Assembly (NCBI GenBank): GCA_045656885.1
Contig: JAZORZ010000071.1
Location: 2,509-66,508, forward strand
DNA: 64,000 nt
Reading direction: 5' to 3'
Origin: Eubacteriales bacterium
Lineage (GTDB): Bacteria; Bacillota; Clostridia; Oscillospirales; CAG-272
Part shown: positions 30,895 through 38,591 of the stretch, in pieces
Layout of the letters: each line of letters opens with the position of its first letter
Position numbering within the stretch: the first letter of the stretch is position 1
The notes under the pieces: generated by a model
Told to the model about the DNA's origin: nothing
Database searches by the model: none
What the model saw: only the letters and a program-made list of their open reading frames with translations
Translations under genes and position numbers: made by a program

Positions 30895-31401
30895 TTACGA
30901 GCCGACTTCCCCTTTGTTGCCGCTCTGCCACCACACCACCCGGGCGGTGATGTTCTCCCCCAAAAAGGATAGCGGCTCCCCTTTGGGAGAGAGCGTCAAC
31001 GTGCCACCCGATGGGAAAGCAAGCACAGTGTTCTCCTCCACTCGTTGCACGCTTTTGGCTTCTTCTTTTGGTAAAAACGCGGTAACGGGTCGCAAAAACC
31101 CCGCCACCTCAGAGGTATCGCAGACATACCTCACATTCCTCAAGAACACCTCACACCGCTCCCCCTCTGCCTCAAGCACAAGACCGCAAAGGGATGCGGG
31201 TGCAAGGTATTCCACACGCACGGGAGAACCGCCCTCCCCTATTTCCAAAACGGCGCAAAACGCTATGCCGCTCATCTCTCCCTCAACCTCGCCGCGCCCT
31301 CCTGACACGATGTAGCCCGCATTGCTTCGAGCGGGTGTACACCCAACCGCCAAGGACGACATCACTACGACAAGCAATAGCAAAAAATGTCGAATTTTCA
31401 T
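30895..31401 (-). CDS. hypothetical lipoprotein
   Basis: ORF trimmed to ATG 31401 behind GGGAGGAAAAG. MKIRHFLLLLVVVMSSLAVGC lipobox. Confidence 0.65.
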   Translation of the reverse strand: MKIRHFLLLLVVVMSSLAVGCTPARSNAGYIVSGGRGEVEGEMSGIAFCAVLEIGEGGSPVRVEYLAPASLCGLVLEAEGERCEVFLRNVRYVCDTSEVAGFLRPVTAFLPKEEAKSVQRVEENTVLAFPSGGTLTLSPKGEPLSFLGENITARVVWWQSGNKGEVGS

Positions 31402-31485
31402 TTCTTTTCCTCCCAATATTTGCACAAAACGCGCTTTCTTATAAGTATTTTTATGAGAATTTTTGAAAAAGATGCAAAAAAGGGA

Positions 31486-31514
31486 TTGCAATATTTGTCT
31501 TATAATGGTATAAT
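31486..31514 (+). promoter_or_regulatory. sigma-A type promoter of alr; contains a copy of the 13-mer GCAATATTTGTCT
   Basis: TTGCAA-17 nt-TATAAT. The 13-mer is at 31488-31500. Confidence 0.6.
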
Positions 31515-31547
31515 AGATGCAGTATTTTGAAAGAAAGGTGGAACGCC

Positions 31548-32774
31548 ATGGAAGCATTCTCTCGCACCCCCGCAAAACCCCAACCGAAATATCCTTGGTT
31601 TACCTCAACCAAGCGCGCCGAGATCGACATTGGCGCTCTGCAAAACAACTATCGCGCTTGCTTGGAAAAGCTCCGCCAAATCACACCGAATGCGCGTATT
31701 CTAGCTGTGGTTAAGGCCGATGCCTACGGGCACGGCTCCAACACCTGCGTGTGGGCGCTCGAAAATGCCGGTTGTGACTTTTTTGCGGTCTCCTGCCTCG
31801 AAGAGGCCTATCCCGTCCGTGACCAAGCAAAGCATGCCGATATTCTGGTTCTCGGTTACACGGCTCCGCAATTTGCAAGTGAATTAACCAAGCACGGTCT
31901 TATTCAAACACTCCTTTCCCACGACTATGCACGCGAGCTTGCCGAGGTGGCAAAAAAAGAAAAGCTCGCCCCCCTGCGTGTTCACATTGCGGTTGACACG
32001 GGCATGGGGCGCATCGGCTACCCCGCCCGCACCGAACAAGAAATTGACGATACGGTAAAAAAGATTCTTTCACTCCGCGATGAGGGCGTGTTTGAGATTT
32101 GCGGAATGTTTACCCACTTTGCGCGCGCCGACGAAGGGCTTGCGACCTCAAAAGAAAAAACAACGCTGCAGGCAACGCGCTACCGCACACTCAAGAAAAA
32201 GCTTGAAGAGAGCGGCATGATCATTCCCTTTCACCACGTGTGCAACAGTGCGGCGGCACTGACACGCCCCGGCGACATTTTTGACGGCGTGCGCCTCGGC
32301 CTTTGCCTCTACACGCCGCCCACGTACACGCCAAAACGCCTGAAGTTGCAACCCGTTATGCATCTTTCGGCAGACGTGGTGCACATTCAAACGATTCCCG
32401 GAGGTGAATCGGTTGGCTACGGCGGTCGGTTCACCGCACTCAACGATACCCCGATCGGCGTGCTCCCTATCGGTTATGCCGACGGAATCCCCCGCTCGCT
32501 CAGGGGCGCGACACTTTCTATCAAAACCGAAAAAGGCACATTCCCCGTTAAAATCATCGGCAGCGTTTGCATGGACCAATGCATGATCGACCTCTCGGGC
32601 ATTGACGCAAAGGTTGGAGATCGCGTCAACTTTTTCGGCCACACCCCCACAGCTCTTTCGGCGCTTGCCGAACACGCAGGCACAATTCCCTACGAGCTGC
32701 TTTGCGCAATCTCCCTGCGCGTTCCCCGCAACATCATCTGCCCGGAACAAAACGAAAAGAAAAAAGAGGATTGA
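31548..32774 (+). CDS. alr: alanine racemase
   Basis: AVVKADAYGHG (PLP lysine), ..GYADG... Start ATG 31548 behind AAAGGTGG. Confidence 0.9.
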   Translation: MEAFSRTPAKPQPKYPWFTSTKRAEIDIGALQNNYRACLEKLRQITPNARILAVVKADAYGHGSNTCVWALENAGCDFFAVSCLEEAYPVRDQAKHADILVLGYTAPQFASELTKHGLIQTLLSHDYARELAEVAKKEKLAPLRVHIAVDTGMGRIGYPARTEQEIDDTVKKILSLRDEGVFEICGMFTHFARADEGLATSKEKTTLQATRYRTLKKKLEESGMIIPFHHVCNSAAALTRPGDIFDGVRLGLCLYTPPTYTPKRLKLQPVMHLSADVVHIQTIPGGESVGYGGRFTALNDTPIGVLPIGYADGIPRSLRGATLSIKTEKGTFPVKIIGSVCMDQCMIDLSGIDAKVGDRVNFFGHTPTALSALAEHAGTIPYELLCAISLRVPRNIICPEQNEKKKED

Positions 32775-32777
32775 AAA

Positions 32778-33503
32778 ATGAAACGATTTGTAAAAATATC
32801 TTCCCTGTGCATTGTTATCACCTTGATCATCACAATGCTTTGTGCACCCGTAAATGCGATTGGTAACACCGCAAGCAAACAAATTGTTGGACACGGCTCA
32901 GTCAGCGACGGTATTGGAAAACACACCACGGTGATTGATTTTGCGAGCTCTGACCTTGGCGGCTTTGTTCCTTTTGCCGGAACCGAGCCCCTGAACTTTG
33001 GCGCATCTGCCGTTTGGGGAACCAACGTGCTCAAGACCCCGCTTTCTTCCTCACAAAACGGGGTAGGTATTAAAAAGACCTTTGCCGACGCATCTGCTTT
33101 TGCGGGCGCTACCACCCTTTCGGTACAACAGGTAGCACAGGCATCTGCCTACACGCTGACCCTGCACCTTTCGGGCATTGATAAAAACAATACCCCCTTG
33201 ACCTTTGTAGCAACCGTTGCTGCCACCACAAATCAATGGCAGACTGTTACCTTTGATATTTCCCCCTTCTTGTCTCTTGTCAACGAAAACGCCCCCTTGA
33301 CGCTTTCGATTGTGGTGGCTACCGATGTCGGGGCCAATTCCGGTGCCGAATGGATGGTCAAGTCCATTTACGTATGCGCACCCCAAACCGTTCCCGAGAT
33401 TCTTCTCCCGATTGCAGCGGCCGTTTGCGGTTTTGCGGTTGGGTTTGCCATCTTCTTTGTGATTTATCGCACCATGTGTAACAAAAAACGCCGCGCACAC
33501 TGA
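32778..33503 (+). CDS. hypothetical secreted protein with C-terminal membrane anchor
   Basis: Signal peptide (..CAPVNA), beta-rich middle, C-terminal TM + KKRRAH. Confidence 0.6.
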   Translation: MKRFVKISSLCIVITLIITMLCAPVNAIGNTASKQIVGHGSVSDGIGKHTTVIDFASSDLGGFVPFAGTEPLNFGASAVWGTNVLKTPLSSSQNGVGIKKTFADASAFAGATTLSVQQVAQASAYTLTLHLSGIDKNNTPLTFVATVAATTNQWQTVTFDISPFLSLVNENAPLTLSIVVATDVGANSGAEWMVKSIYVCAPQTVPEILLPIAAAVCGFAVGFAIFFVIYRTMCNKKRRAH

Positions 33504-33516
33504 GAGGATCGCTGAT

Positions 33517-34353
33517 ATGTCATTGAACGTAAAATACGAGCACAAGCTGCAGGACATTGCGTTTTTGAGTGGACATCGCATTCAATACATACCGCACCTG
33601 CACCGCGAATTGGAGCTCATATGTCTTTTAGAGGGTGACGTGATCGCCTATGCCGATTCGGTTCGCTACGAGCTGCACGCGGGCGATATTTTCCTCACCT
33701 TCCCAAATCAGATCCATTCCTATGAAAAGGTAACGGAAGAAACACACGTCGGCTTTATTTTTAAGCCCGATCTCTTGCCCGAGCTGATGGAGACATTTAC
33801 CATTGGCACACCTACCTCGCCTGTCATCACGGGGGCGGCAAACGATCCGCGCATTCGCGCGCTGATCGACGCTCTGACCGATACGATCACACGTGAGGAC
33901 TTCTCACACGTTTCCGAGCTTCGCCGCGGCTATCTGTTGGCCCTGTGTGCTGAGCTTATCCCCATGATGAAGATTTCCAAGCTCCCTTTGGGAGATTCGG
34001 AATCCTTACGCACCATCGTTTCCTTTTGCACCCAAAACTATGCCGAGAACCTTTCTCTTTCCCTCTTGGAAGAAAAGCTCCACCTGAACAAGTTTTACAT
34101 TTCTCACTTGTTCAGCGGACGACTCGGCTTGGGCTTTAACGACTACATCAATTCCCTGCGCGTTTCCGAGGCCTGCCGATACCTACTCAACTCCTCGCTC
34201 AGCATCACAGAGATCGGCTCTCTGGTCGGTTTTAACACGCCGCGCACCTTTAACCGCGCATTTATCAAGCAGTTGGGGCTTTCCCCCTCGGAATACCGCA
34301 AGCAGCGTATGCCCGAGATGCGCGCACACGTCAAACGCCTCTCCGAGGAGTAA
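33517..34353 (+). CDS. AraC-family transcriptional regulator (cupin + HTH)
   Basis: N-terminal cupin-like HLHRELELI..GD.F, C-terminal ..ITEIGSLVGFNTPRTFNRAFIKQLGLSPSEYR. Confidence 0.85.
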   Translation: MSLNVKYEHKLQDIAFLSGHRIQYIPHLHRELELICLLEGDVIAYADSVRYELHAGDIFLTFPNQIHSYEKVTEETHVGFIFKPDLLPELMETFTIGTPTSPVITGAANDPRIRALIDALTDTITREDFSHVSELRRGYLLALCAELIPMMKISKLPLGDSESLRTIVSFCTQNYAENLSLSLLEEKLHLNKFYISHLFSGRLGLGFNDYINSLRVSEACRYLLNSSLSITEIGSLVGFNTPRTFNRAFIKQLGLSPSEYRKQRMPEMRAHVKRLSEE

Positions 34354-34438
34354 AACGCGCAACCACGACACCCTGTTTGTCGCACATGTCTTATTAAAAA
34401 GAAAAGAATAGCAATATTTGTCTGATTGGAGAAATAAT

Positions 34439-35680
34439 ATGAGCCAAATTAAGGATATTAAACTCGCACCTTCGGGCGCGGACAAGATCGCATGGGTTGC
34501 CTCTTATATGCCCATTCTCAACTCTGTAAAAGAAGAATTTGAAAGAACAAAACCCTTTGCGGGCAAGAAGATCTCGATGTCGATCCACCTGGAAGCCAAG
34601 ACCGCATATCTTGCAAAGATCCTGCGTGCGGGCGGCGCCGAGGTTTGGGTAACGGGCTGCAATCCCCTTTCTACTCAGGATGACGTTGCGGCGGCTCTTG
34701 CTGCCGAGGGCTTCGAGGTCCACGCCATTCACGGCGTATCGATGGAAGAATACGTCGAGCACCTCAAAATGACACTTTCCTGCTGCCCCGATCTCATCAT
34801 CGACGACGGCGGCGACCTCATCTCGCTCCTTCACAGCGAATGCCGCGAATACGGCAAAAACTTGATTGGCGGTTGCGAAGAAACCACCACGGGTATTCAC
34901 CGTCTGCTCTCCCGCGAAAAAGCAGGGCTGCTTGACTACACGATGATCGACGTGAACGACGCCGATTGCAAGCATTTGTTTGACAATCGCTACGGCACGG
35001 GACAGTCGACACTGGACGGAATCATGAACGCCACCAACCTGATTATTGCCGGCAAGACTGTTGTAATTGCGGGCTACGGGTGGTGCGGAAAGGGCTTTGC
35101 AATGCGCGCAAAAGGCATGGGCGCGGTTGTAATTGTAACTGAGGTCGACCCCATTAAAGCCATTGAAGCAACCATGGACGGCTTTACCGTTATGCCCATG
35201 GACGAAGCCGCAAAATACGGCGATTTGTTCGTTACCCTGACCGGCTGCGCGGATGTTCTTGTAAAGCGTCATTTTGAAACCATGAAGGACGGTGTTCTGC
35301 TTGCCAACAGCGGTCACTTTGACGTAGAAATTAATAAGGATCACCTTGCAGAGCTTGCAACCGAGATTTGGGAACGCAAGCCCAACATTCGCGGTTACCG
35401 CATGGCAGACGGCCGCGTGCTCAATCTGCTTGCCGACGGCCGACTTGTCAACCTTGCAGCAGGTAACGGCCATCCCGCCGAAATTATGGATATGTCCTTT
35501 GGTATTCAGGCAAAGAGCTTGGCATACCTTGCCAAGAACGGCAAGAGCTTGGATAAAAAAGTTTACGCCGTTCCCACCGAGATCGACCGCGAGGTCGCCC
35601 TCATCAAGCTCAACTCCACGGGCGTGAATATCGATGTTCTCACCCCCGAACAAGAAGAATATCTCGCTCGCGTTGAGTAA
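34439..35680 (+). CDS. ahcY: adenosylhomocysteinase
   Basis: ..CNPLSTQDDVAAAL..IIDDGGDL..GGCEETTTG..VIAGYGWCGKG.. (NAD site). Confidence 0.95.
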   Translation: MSQIKDIKLAPSGADKIAWVASYMPILNSVKEEFERTKPFAGKKISMSIHLEAKTAYLAKILRAGGAEVWVTGCNPLSTQDDVAAALAAEGFEVHAIHGVSMEEYVEHLKMTLSCCPDLIIDDGGDLISLLHSECREYGKNLIGGCEETTTGIHRLLSREKAGLLDYTMIDVNDADCKHLFDNRYGTGQSTLDGIMNATNLIIAGKTVVIAGYGWCGKGFAMRAKGMGAVVIVTEVDPIKAIEATMDGFTVMPMDEAAKYGDLFVTLTGCADVLVKRHFETMKDGVLLANSGHFDVEINKDHLAELATEIWERKPNIRGYRMADGRVLNLLADGRLVNLAAGNGHPAEIMDMSFGIQAKSLAYLAKNGKSLDKKVYAVPTEIDREVALIKLNSTGVNIDVLTPEQEEYLARVE

Positions 35681-35789
35681 ACCAAAGCCACGTATATTTT
35701 TCTTTTATTTCCTTATTTGTTATTTATTTACAATAGCAATATTTGTCTTGTTTTTGTTTTGAGTTCAAAGTTGAAGGAGTTTCCTCTCG

Positions 35790-37727
35790 ATGTTAAATCA
35801 ACCCCAAAATAACCAAAATTCTCTTTCCTGTCGCGTTGCTGTTATCGGTGCGGGACATGCAGGTATTGAGGCAGCTCTCGCCTCGGCACGGCTCGGCGTT
35901 GATACCGTTCTGTTTACAATGTCGCTCGAGTCGATTGCCAACATGCCCTGCAACCCTTCCATCGGTGGAACAGCTAAGGGACACCTCGTTTATGAGATAG
36001 ATGCCCTGGGCGGCGAAATGGGCCGCGCTGCGGATCTGGTCACCCTGCAATCCCGTCTTCTTAATATGGGAAAAGGCGTTGCCGTACAAAGCAAGCGCGT
36101 GCAAGCAGACCGCAAAAAGTATCAATCTATTATGAAGCGCACGCTTGAAACAACGCCCAATTTGCGTCTTGTGCAATCCGAGGTGACCGCAATATTTGTC
36201 TCTTCTAACGACAAATGTAGTGAGTTGTTAGAAAAAAGAGAAGATAATACCGCAATATTTGTCTCAGGTTTACAAACGCGCTTGGGCGAGAAATGGGATT
36301 GTGATTGTATTATTGTTGCCACAGGAACCTACCTTGAGAGTGCTATTTTTGTGGGCGACGTCAGCTACGAAGCAGGCCCCGACGGCTTTCTTCCCGCCAA
36401 GGGTCTCTCTGCTTCTCTAGAAGAGATTGGCGTCAAACTGCTCCGTTTTAAGACAGGTACGCCCGCGCGAATTAAGCGTGAGACCATCGATTTCTCGGTA
36501 CTCGAGGAGCAACCTGGTGATAAATTTATTCTCCCTTACTCTTCCCTTCATGACGAAAACTTCTTCAAGGATTTTGAACAGATCAGTTGCCACATCGTTT
36601 ATACCAATTCCGAGACCCACCGCATCATTCGCGAGAATATCACACGCAGCGCCCTTTATTCGGGCAAGATCCACGGCACAGGCCCTCGCTACTGCCCCTC
36701 GATTGAGGACAAGCTCGTTCGCTTTGCCGATAAGGAGCGACACCAGCTCTTTGTAGAGCCAATGGGTGCCGATACCTCGGAAATCTATCTGCAGGGCTTT
36801 TCCACCTCTCTCCCAACAGATGTGCAGGTCAAAATGCTGCATTCTCTTACGGGATTTGAGAATGCCGAGATCATGCGGTATGCCTACGCCATCGAATATG
36901 ACTGCGCTGACCCCTTGCAAATGGATGCAACGCTCGAATTTAAGCATATCAAAGGCCTTTTTGGCGCAGGACAGTTCAATGGTACATCCGGCTATGAGGA
37001 AGCCGCCGCACAAGGCCTTGTTGCAGGCATCAATGCTGCAAGACGTGTCAAAAACCTTCCTTCTATTATATTACCGCGCTCCGGCAGCTACATTGGCACC
37101 TTAATTGACGATCTTGTCACCAAAGGAACCAACGAACCCTACCGTATGATGACCTCTCGCTCGGAGTATCGTCTGCTTTTGCGTCAAGATAACGCAGATT
37201 TGCGTCTGACACCCATCGGATACGAGGCAGGACTCATTGATGAGGCCCGTTATCAGGCGTTTTTGTGCAAAAAAGAGGCACAAGAGGCCGAAAAAGAGCG
37301 ATTGGAGCAAACATTTGTATCTCCCGCACTTGCAAATCCTCTCCTGGAGCGCATTGGCGAAACTACGCTTAAATCCGGCTCTTCCTTGGCAAATTTGCTC
37401 CGCAGACCCGCCGTTACCTATGATTTGCTTGCAGAAATTGATACAAATCGCCCCGAATTGCCTTATTCTGTGCAACTTTCGGTTGAAACCGACACAAAAT
37501 ATAAAGGTTACACCGACCGCCAGATAGCCGACGTTGAAAGACAAAAGAAATTCGAGGCAAAATCACTCCCCGAAAGCATCGATTACACAAAAATAAAAGG
37601 TTTACGCCTTGAAGCCGCGCAAAAATTGGCAAACATTCGCCCCAAAACACTCGGCCAAGCCGCGCGCGTTAGCGGTGTTAATCCCGCCGACATTACCGTT
37701 TTGATGATTTATTTAGAAATGAAATGA
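35790..37727 (+). CDS. mnmG: tRNA uridine 5-carboxymethylaminomethyl modification enzyme MnmG, carrying a 21-aa in-frame insertion
   Basis: VIGAGHAGIEAA..MSCNPSIGG-type motif (MPCNPSIGGTAKG), GTGPRYCPSIEDK. Confidence 0.95.
   Translation: MLNQPQNNQNSLSCRVAVIGAGHAGIEAALASARLGVDTVLFTMSLESIANMPCNPSIGGTAKGHLVYEIDALGGEMGRAADLVTLQSRLLNMGKGVAVQSKRVQADRKKYQSIMKRTLETTPNLRLVQSEVTAIFVSSNDKCSELLEKREDNTAIFVSGLQTRLGEKWDCDCIIVATGTYLESAIFVGDVSYEAGPDGFLPAKGLSASLEEIGVKLLRFKTGTPARIKRETIDFSVLEEQPGDKFILPYSSLHDENFFKDFEQISCHIVYTNSETHRIIRENITRSALYSGKIHGTGPRYCPSIEDKLVRFADKERHQLFVEPMGADTSEIYLQGFSTSLPTDVQVKMLHSLTGFENAEIMRYAYAIEYDCADPLQMDATLEFKHIKGLFGAGQFNGTSGYEEAAAQGLVAGINAARRVKNLPSIILPRSGSYIGTLIDDLVTKGTNEPYRMMTSRSEYRLLLRQDNADLRLTPIGYEAGLIDEARYQAFLCKKEAQEAEKERLEQTFVSPALANPLLERIGETTLKSGSSLANLLRRPAVTYDLLAEIDTNRPELPYSVQLSVETDTKYKGYTDRQIADVERQKKFEAKSLPESIDYTKIKGLRLEAAQKLANIRPKTLGQAARVSGVNPADITVLMIYLEMK
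36186..36265 (+). repeat. 17-bp direct repeat ACCGCAATATTTGTCTC x2 spaced exactly 63 bp, inside mnmG
   Basis: Copies at 36186-36202 and 36249-36265, encoding TAIFVS twice. The internal segment contains the hairpin ATTTGTC-N9-GACAAAT and AT-rich codons. Confidence 0.9.
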
Positions 37728-37736
37728 GGTTTTTCC

Positions 37737-38465
37737 TTGGATTTTACTACTTTTTCGCAGATTTTTAACACTGCGGCAGCCAAAAACGGCATTTTAATAC
37801 CAAACGAAGCACAAATGCTTCAATTTTACCGCTTTACAGAGTATCTTTTAGAAGTAAACGCGCACACCAATCTGACCGCCATCCGAGAACCTGTTGGCGT
37901 TGTTGATAAACACTATATTGACTCTCTTTTAGCAATGGATCTCATTCCGAATGGAGCTCGCGTGCTTGATTTGGGTTGTGGACCGGGATTTCCGTCCATT
38001 CCACTTGCCATCATGCGCCCCGATTTAGAGATCACCGCACTTGACAGTACCGCAAAAAAGATTGATTTTGTGCAAAAAAGTGCAGAAATCCTGCAATTAT
38101 CCAACTTAAAAAGTGTTTGCGGGCGTGCAGAAGACGCAAAATTAAGAAAAATGCTTGGTAAGCACGATATTGTGGTAAGTCGTGCCGTGGCGCGGCTCAA
38201 CGTGTTGTGTGAACTCTGTATTCCATATTTGAAAATCGGTGGCTGTTTGGTTGCATTAAAAGGCGCTAAATATGAGGAGGAATTGGTCGAGGCAACCAAC
38301 GCAATCAAGATTTTAGGCGCGGAAACCACTAAAACAGAACAAAAAGAGCTCATTACAGCCGATAACCAAGCAGAAACACGCGGAATAATCATTATTCAAT
38401 CCAAAAAAGAAGCACCAAGCCAATATCCGCGTGCCTACGCAGCCATTCTTAAAAAACCGTTATAA
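37737..38465 (+). CDS. rsmG: 16S rRNA (guanine527-N7)-methyltransferase
   Basis: VLDLGCGPGFPSIPLAI SAM motif. Follows mnmG. TTG start as given by the track. Confidence 0.9.
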   Translation: MDFTTFSQIFNTAAAKNGILIPNEAQMLQFYRFTEYLLEVNAHTNLTAIREPVGVVDKHYIDSLLAMDLIPNGARVLDLGCGPGFPSIPLAIMRPDLEITALDSTAKKIDFVQKSAEILQLSNLKSVCGRAEDAKLRKMLGKHDIVVSRAVARLNVLCELCIPYLKIGGCLVALKGAKYEEELVEATNAIKILGAETTKTEQKELITADNQAETRGIIIIQSKKEAPSQYPRAYAAILKKPL

Positions 38466-38469
38466 ATAA

Positions 38470-38591
38470 AGTTTCACGTGAAACAATTATCTCTGTTGTT
38501 GATATGTTTCACGTGAAACTCTTTGTTTTTATTGCCATATGTTTCACGTGAAACATATGCTCGCTGTTGGGTGTTTGTTTCACGTGAAACG
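38470..38591. promoter_or_regulatory. parS: array of four parS centromere sites
   Basis: aGTTTCACGTGAAACa (38470), TGTTTCACGTGAAACt (38505), TGTTTCACGTGAAACA (38540), TGTTTCACGTGAAACg (38576). These match the Bacillus consensus TGTTNCACGTGAAACA. Spacing is 35/35/36 bp. Confidence 0.9.

Follow-up and report, generated by a model that had tools for sequence, protein, structure and literature searches.

We analysed a stretch of 64,000 nucleotides (nt) from a Eubacteriales bacterium (Oscillospirales, CAG-272; GenBank assembly GCA_045656885.1, contig JAZORZ010000071.1), hereafter referred to as the window, in which the 13-mer GCAATATTTGTCT recurs. A previous reading of the DNA without database searches (the sequence-only reading) reported five exact same-strand copies within 4.8 kb, at 31488, 34411, 35736, 36189 and 36252, and all five were found at these positions on the plus strand. 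The element is most likely an undescribed operator, an ordinary kind of control that is unusually exact and lies partly within the coding sequence of mnmG. The copies lie in a run of co-oriented genes extending from alr to rsmG, with the following features:

31486-31514, plus strand: promoter of the alr operon (consensus scan), with TTGCAA, 17 nt and TATAAT, and a TG before the -10 (TGgTATAAT)
31485-31501 (core 31488-31500), plus strand: putative operator copy 1, the 17-mer ATTGCAATATTTGTCTT, covering the last 4 nt of the alr -35 and most of the spacer, about -33 to -21
31548-32774, plus strand: alr, alanine racemase, 408 amino acids (aa); Pfam Ala_racemase_N 8e-52, Ala_racemase_C 4e-37
32778-33503, plus strand: orf241, 241 aa, no Pfam match; N-terminal signal or transmembrane segment, C-terminal transmembrane segment and basic tail
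33517-34353, plus strand: gene for an AraC-family regulator, 278 aa; AraC_binding (cupin) 3e-12, HTH_18 (two helix-turn-helix motifs, HTH) 5e-21
34408-34424 (core 34411-34423), plus strand: putative operator copy 2, ATAGCAATATTTGTCTG, between the regulator stop codon and the ahcY ribosome-binding site
34439-35680, plus strand: ahcY, S-adenosylhomocysteine (SAH) hydrolase, 413 aa; AdoHcyase_NAD 2e-54, AdoHcyase 4e-53
35733-35749 (core 35736-35748), plus strand: putative operator copy 3, ATAGCAATATTTGTCTT, in the ahcY-mnmG gap
35790-37727, plus strand: mnmG (gidA), tRNA U34 modification enzyme, 645 aa; GIDA 2e-150
36189-36201, plus strand: putative operator copy 4, in frame inside mnmG, codons A-I-F-V-S
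36252-36264, plus strand: putative operator copy 5, inside mnmG, 63 bp (3 x 21) past copy 4, also coding for A-I-F-V-S
37737-38465, plus strand: rsmG (gidB), GidB 2e-45, the final gene of the run

The 13-mer in the window and in the genome

The five copies compare with an expected number of 0.01 in the window, and none of 100 dinucleotide-preserving shuffles reached five. No other copy was found in the window, even with up to two mismatches, as the sequence-only reading had stated for exact copies, and the genome-wide search for exact and one-mismatch copies that it had proposed returned few. The whole genome (2,020,921 bp in 79 contigs, 48.6% G+C) contains six exact copies only, the sixth lying on another contig (C32:7829), together with a single functional-looking one-mismatch copy beside lepA (C2:22247). 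The reported placements were also recovered: in the alr promoter, copy 1 extends over part of the -35 (TTGCAA, 31486-31491) and of the spacer, the end of copy 2 is separated by 15 nt from the ahcY ATG (34439) and that of copy 3 by 41 nt from the mnmG ATG (35790), and copies 4 and 5 are both in frame within mnmG. Copies 2 and 3 do share a longer 17-mer (AATAGCAATATTTGTCT), and copies 4 and 5 sit within a 17-nt direct repeat (ACCGCAATATTTGTCTC). Similarity between the copies stops at about 17 nt, and the 13-mer is therefore not part of a longer repeat. Neither a similar density throughout the genome nor membership of a longer known repeat, the two outcomes that had been named as fatal to a special role for the word, was found. 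The A/G-rich run described upstream of several copies is kept at the ahcY copy; at the in-mnmG copy it consists of coding sequence that varies between species, and the resemblance there thus appears to be coincidental.

The 13-mer was said to match no known operator consensus, and our own comparison led to the same result: it is not known to fit Spo0A (TGTCGAA), CodY, CcpA cre, Rex, Fur, LexA, IHF, sigma-54 or the sporulation sigma factors. By inspection, it matches neither the parS (TGTTNCACGTGAAACA) nor the DnaA box (TTATCCACA) consensus. In a literature search, the 13-mer was encountered only in two incidental string matches, neither of them in the sense of an operator.

The alr promoter is the only 10/12 sigma-70-type match on the plus strand between 31200 and 38600. 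Its -35 and -10 are kept across the genus, including species without the motif in the spacer, and in more than ten species the alr promoters are identical in layout (TTGCAATATTTGTCT-N8-TATAAT). The same plus-strand consensus scan yielded no promoters belonging to ahcY or mnmG themselves. No plus-strand terminator was found between alr and rsmG, and these genes may form one transcript, containing four of the copies.

Conservation and promoter architecture across the genus

The comparison covered 61 species genomes of this uncultured ruminant-gut Clostridia genus (metagenome-assembled genomes from roe deer, buffalo and sheep gut). The exact 13-mer is present, in one to eight copies, in 45 of the 61 genomes, against about zero for the reversed control word. 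The examination of orthologous promoters suggested by the sequence-only reading revealed exact 13-mers at orthologous intergenic places among relatives, the coding DNA of which is 68-85% identical to that of the window. When 96 sites were sorted by downstream gene, five recurring targets emerged, motif and gene pointing the same way in every case: alr, ahcY, mnmG, and the genes for an IolE-like sugar isomerase and an IolG-like oxidoreductase. In this genome, the latter two correspond to a 271-aa sugar-phosphate isomerase/epimerase (C32:7945-8760) and a 349-aa Gfo/Idh/MocA oxidoreductase (C2, minus strand), both annotated from weak family-level matches. The ahcY copy is exact and located 12-30 nt before the ATG in 10 non-identical upstream regions, one per species, and the mnmG copy is exact and located 16-43 nt before the ATG in 16 non-identical upstream regions, being squeezed in some species into an ahcY-mnmG gap of only 46 nt. 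A relaxed bipartite scan of this genome returned 24 hits, the control 12, and apart from the known promoters none of the hits was convincing, suggesting that the regulon is small.

At both sugar-gene promoters, the exact copy ends 20 nt 5' of the -35 (TTGAAA or TTGACA), which is followed by 17 nt and then TATAAT or TATACT, so that the copy occupies positions -68 to -56. Scoring of all offsets around the exact copies revealed that a secondary copy also stands at +21, matching at 9.1 and 8.5 of 13 positions (background 3.6); its last base is the first T of the -35. Further secondary copies were found at -42 in the oxidoreductase promoters (10.2 of 13) and at +43, abutting the -10, in the isomerase promoters (10.0), against the same background. 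The +21 direct repeat was encountered in this genome (G000) at C32:7829 and C2:22247 and, for each gene, in 8-11 orthologous promoters. Since offset was the sole criterion in picking the 30 distinct secondary sites, they are free of search bias; their positions 2-4 and 6 (CAA.A) and 9-13 (TGTCT) are kept at frequencies of 0.63 to 1.0, whereas positions 5, 7 and 8 reach only 0.40 to 0.50. The flanks are also conserved (A at -3, 0.87; T at -2, 0.71), and this extends the core to a 17-bp unit, aTAGCAATATTTGTCTt, i.e. a-T-A-GCAATATTTGTCT-t.

These observations provide an asymmetric half-site of about 17 bp with two boxes approximately one helical turn apart and, at the two sugar promoters, a 21-bp direct repeat with the proximal half-site adjoining the -35, as expected for operators of the AraC/XylS family. 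Judged from the DNA, the 13-mer thus behaves like an operator of this family in the features that can be assessed at this level. A symmetric palindrome bound by a dimeric repressor was also considered and rejected, since self-complementarity of the 13-mer is only weak, and what the degenerate copies preserve is GCA...TGTCT, not two symmetric halves.

The sixth exact copy, within the region C32:2596-9964 of this genome, follows rnpA-yidD-yidC-jag-mnmE-orf158 and precedes the IolE-like isomerase gene and a gene for a 388-aa Gfo/Idh/MocA oxidoreductase. This arrangement suggests that the sugar-oxidation genes were inserted between mnmE and the usual surroundings of mnmG. In the window, a short element, TTGTCGCACATGTCTT (34378-34393), lies about 20-30 nt upstream of the ahcY copy, and it is kept in distant species too, as tgtcgcagatgtcat (L021, L026) and tgtcacagatgtcct (L024). 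Directly after rsmG, four parS-like 16-mers, TGTTTCACGTGAAACA (0-1 mismatch), lie in tandem at 38470-38591, 35-36 bp apart (8 strand-matches against 0.14 expected), as an origin-proximal cluster of partition sites.

The AraC-family regulator as the probable reader of the site, and alternatives

The regulator gene lies between copies 1 and 2, and its product is similar to AraC and RhaR from end to end. This protein scored below every NCBIfam equivalog cut-off (AryK, 76 bits against 850; AraC, 62 against 208; RhaR, 53 against 363; MarA, 31 against 250), and an orthologue of AraC, RhaS/R, MelR, XylS or MarA was rejected on these curated cut-offs, so the protein is considered here as a family member only. 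Its gene starts 13 nt after orf241. Given this short gap, the alr promoter as the only good one on the plus strand and the absence of a plus-strand terminator after it, the regulator gene is probably co-transcribed from the alr promoter, and the presence of copy 1 in that promoter probably represents an autoregulatory layout. The order alr, (membrane open reading frame), araC is kept across the genus. The open reading frame concerned, orf241, is retained between alr and the AraC-family gene in most species, and a C-terminal transmembrane segment with a basic tail was seen directly upstream of the AraC orthologue in many of them; its product may be a partner of the regulator.

An orthologue of the regulator (at least 50% identity) was found in 55 of the 61 genomes, including all of the 45 that bear the motif, and none of the six genomes without it has the motif. 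Five of these six were searched for the sugar targets and contain no true orthologue of the isomerase (best 27-32% identity, against 74-81% elsewhere) or of the oxidoreductase (best 26-30%). For two other cupin-AraC paralogues of this genome, orthologues were found in no more than 13 and 23 of the 61 genomes, respectively, and therefore neither can be the reader of the motif. A two-HTH AraC-family protein is thus encoded with the sites and co-inherited with them, in counts that ignore phylogeny. In terms of distance, 81 of the 144 exact copies lie no more than 7 kb from the regulator gene, with at least one such copy in 38 of the 45 genomes.

In genomes in which the orthologue is only 52-64% identical, the exact word is absent, and the variants GCAATAAATGTCT, GCAACAAATGTCT and GCAATATTTGTCC occupy the same place in the isomerase promoter; in the G016 clade, a TT-to-AA change is found in both the distal and the proximal copies. 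The alr promoters of these genomes keep the -35 and -10 without the motif, which is also lacking upstream of ahcY and mnmG. The window copies therefore appear to have been added later, as the regulon grew around the gene of the regulator itself. Two other arrangements were observed among the relatives: an inverted variant, GCAACATTTGTCC, 8 nt upstream of the alr -35 (L114, G073:C47), which is the only inverted copy seen, and three tandem paralogues of the regulator (57%, 48% and 43% identity; L117, G060:C58:1981-4752) in a genome without the exact motif.

Promoter phasing, the two boxes and the joint presence or absence of regulator, motif and sugar targets across the genus argue, with moderate confidence and at the level of sequence comparison, for the 13-mer as the core of an asymmetric, high-affinity operator half-site of about 17 bp recognized by the AraC-type regulator encoded at 33517-34353. 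The sequence-only reading had left four options, and this choice gives a name to one of them, a regulator; a nucleoid-protein site is retained below as a weaker rival, whereas the other two fared badly. A recombinase site is unsupported, as there is no recombinase gene nearby and there are no inverted or paired core sites. The fourth, in which the copies would have no function and be left by a tiny mobile sequence, as its footprint or end (or have arisen by local duplication or gene conversion), is extremely improbable: the copies are exactly identical and the 17-nt direct repeat around a 46-nt stretch in mnmG resembles a target-site duplication, but similarity ends at about 17 nt without inverted arms or terminal repeats, as it would not in a miniature mobile element or a repeat of the repetitive extragenic palindromic type, there are only six copies per genome, and they occupy orthologous promoter positions in species with 68-85% coding identity, exact while their flanks have diverged.

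Under the AraC-type reading, the dimeric regulator would activate the sugar promoters from the adjacent pair of half-sites, and the third copy would repress or poise them, as AraC switches between adjacent and distant half-sites. Binding at copy 1, across the -35 and spacer of the alr-orf241-araC promoter, would result in negative autoregulation. Copies 2 to 5 would be single high-affinity half-sites serving as auxiliary operators or roadblocks, at which the bound regulator would lower ahcY-mnmG-rsmG expression, and one dimer could possibly bridge two of them. Copies 2 and 3 stay with ahcY and mnmG even on contigs other than that of the regulator gene, and this suggests that they serve these two genes. 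A search for a -35 at a fixed distance around any hexamer in or near the motif at the ahcY and mnmG copies gave no consistent signal, and CAATAT, or the hexamer directly before or after the motif, failed as a -10 across species. We infer that copies 2 and 3 are intercistronic operators, acting as roadblocks or bridging partners, and this is the weakest step of the account.

Several observations weigh against the attribution to this regulator. Around copies 2 and 3, which immediately precede ribosome-binding sites, no promoter can be recognised, and AraC-type action there is conjectural. The five copies of the window are single half-sites without a +21 partner, which is non-classical for AraC, and so many almost identical copies would be unusually strict for transcription factor sites. 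The controls consisted of two of the eight other AraC paralogues and of no other regulator family, the genome encoding nine HTH_18 proteins. The co-location of motif and regulator is partly due to the conserved alr-araC-ahcY-mnmG synteny, the genomes lacking all components may be a single clade, which co-occurrence counts of this kind disregard, and in G017 the orthologue adjoins ahcY in the absence of the motif.

The nine HTH_18 proteins, the possibility that the linkage is a by-product of synteny (alr, ahcY, mnmG) and the motif-free orthologue of G017 would also suit a DNA operator for a different factor, either another AraC paralogue or a protein of another family encoded elsewhere. We nevertheless regard such a factor as unlikely, because every motif-bearing genome has the orthologue and most of them lack the two tested paralogues, and because regulator, motif and sugar targets were lost together. 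Hallmarks of the AraC family are also present, namely a bipartite half-site of 17 bp, direct repeats with a 21-bp period and an overlap with the -35, and the promoter of the regulator's own operon bears a copy.

Some of the same observations are compatible with an RNA-level signal, in which the 5' untranslated region or the intercistronic mRNA would be bound by a protein, a small RNA or a nuclease controlling the translation or processing of ahcY and mnmG. The motif is always sense-oriented, copies 2 and 3 sit 12-43 nt 5' of start codons without a promoter of their own, the possible alr-rsmG transcript would include four copies, and constraint on the synonymous sites of an in-gene copy would be explained equally well. 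However, the alr and sugar-promoter copies lie in or upstream of the -35 and spacer, with 21-bp phasing, where transcription is not expected; the G073 variant upstream of the alr -35 is inverted, and the distance to the ribosome-binding site varies. No conserved hairpin was seen, and the genome contains no reverse-complement (antisense) partner of the 13-mer other than co-oriented sites of minus-strand genes. Rfam covariance models gave no match at E <= 1 on either strand of 31200-36500, on which basis a known structured RNA, such as an SAH riboswitch upstream of ahcY, was rejected. An RNA signal is thus considered quite improbable.

The location near the chromosome origin raises the nucleoid-protein option, in which the site would belong not to a gene regulator but to a protein that organises the chromosome near its origin or associates with the nucleoid. 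Five of the six copies adjoin mnmG-rsmG and the four-parS cluster, the sixth follows rnpA-yidC-jag-mnmE, all share a single orientation, and two are inside a gene. Yet the copies track genes rather than the locus, remaining before ahcY, mnmG and the sugar genes on other contigs, and their fixed positions relative to the -35 and -10 hexamers, including the 21-bp phasing to the -35 at promoters elsewhere, would not be explained. The motif is also missing from members of the genus with the same origin-proximal genes, and the one-mismatch copy adjacent to lepA has no evident origin context. We consider this option very improbable.

The copies inside mnmG and likeness to known systems

When mnmG was aligned by codon across seven species of the subclade, just 22% of the third positions proved invariant. 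Over the 1683 bases of this alignment, no unchanged stretch is nevertheless longer than the 14-mer GCAATATTTGTCTC, which corresponds to copy 4, and those next in length reach 11 nt, suggesting that the nucleotide sequence of copy 4, and not the peptide alone, is under selection. Copy 5 is less constrained, being exact in four of the seven species and reading GCAAC[AT]TTTGTCT in the three other relatives. Copy 4 lies 453 bp after copy 3, and the spacing of copies 4 and 5 amounts to three operator periods. In the protein alignment, a variable segment of the subclade MnmG is 11-13 residues longer than in other members of the genus, and on either flank it reads TAIFVS in place of the unrelated residues of relatives. 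One possible explanation, which we put forward tentatively and consider rather unlikely, is that an operator was written into mnmG: selection on a DNA-binding site would have lengthened a variable surface segment and turned both of its flanks to TAIFVS. Combined with the single perfect half-sites before ahcY and mnmG, the two copies would then make up an array for roadblocks or bridging, by which an AraC-type protein that senses sugar would throttle tRNA modification, the methyl cycle and the supply of D-alanine.

A related word was observed elsewhere in the gene. In three species (L006, L020 and L023, from G019, G010 and G002), mnmG contains GCAATATTTGTCG at the peptide ESAIFVG, 530-560 bp after the mnmG-upstream copy; the homologous place in the window, 36342-36354, reads GCTATTTTTGTGG. 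The word may represent another operator that arose independently within the gene, or codon choice may have produced it by chance.

The best-known counterpart of the regulator is AraC of Escherichia coli, which has the same domain order (a cupin ligand-binding and dimerisation domain followed by a two-HTH DNA-binding domain) and half-sites (araI1, araI2, araO1 and araO2) that are likewise asymmetric and about 17 bp long. Set against the positions of the araBAD half-sites and the araI1 sequence (TAGCATTTTTATCCATA), the site described here starts with TAGCA, like araI1, a resemblance rather than a test. The sugar promoters also resemble araBAD in their 21-bp direct repeats, in which the proximal half-site is weak and touches the -35 and the distal one, near -70 to -55, is strong, and the two systems share extra half-sites at a distance and a site in the regulator's own promoter. 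However, identity to AraC is low (NCBIfam, 62 bits for a cut-off of 208), the second box is TGTCT rather than TCCATA, and the extra half-sites lie at distances of 42-43 bp, or of kilobases, instead of 210 bp. Here, moreover, the housekeeping genes alr, ahcY and mnmG carry single perfect half-sites, two of which are intragenic.

The second comparison concerns the marbox (AYnGCACnnWnnRYYAAAY), the site of MarA, SoxS and Rob. It is also asymmetric and bipartite, with GCA(C/A) in its first box and one helical turn between that box and the second, and the first 15 positions fit at 14 of 15. The MarA, SoxS and Rob sites likewise overlap the -35 region or lie near -62, and the DNA-binding domain of the regulator is homologous to MarA (5e-07), SoxS (9e-06) and Rob (4e-05). 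In contrast, MarA-type proteins are monomers free of a ligand domain and the orientation of their sites flips with promoter class, whereas the system described here has a cupin domain, 21-bp direct repeats and a constant orientation, with the G073 variant as the one inverted case. For the copies inside mnmG, the closest parallels are lac O2 in lacZ (+401) and gal OI in galE, which are operators in coding sequence downstream of a promoter-proximal operator, and copy 4 resembles them in bearing nucleotide-level constraint on top of the protein code. The lac and gal sites are palindromes bound by LacI/GalR-family repressors with proven looping; here the half-sites are asymmetric, looping is inferred, and the MnmG segment itself has apparently been remodelled, with TAIFVS appearing twice.

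The results outline a concrete candidate regulon for an uncultured genus of ruminant-gut Clostridia, with one regulator, one 17-bp site and about five operons, the layout of which is broadly that of the textbook araBAD promoter, repeated in a distant lineage. Three aspects are out of the ordinary: the copies hardly vary from species to species; the regulon has apparently spread from sugar-oxidation genes to the neighbouring housekeeping genes alr, ahcY and mnmG-rsmG, which adjoin the parS cluster; and one putative operator is the most conserved nucleotide stretch of mnmG and coincides with a remodelled segment of the protein. If this account is true, it would provide a clean natural case in which the demands of a regulatory site restrict, and perhaps mould, a coding sequence, and would link carbohydrate sensing to genes of tRNA modification and the methyl cycle. 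Should the tentative explanation of the in-mnmG copies also be true, selection on a DNA site would have reshaped an enzyme of an essential pathway.

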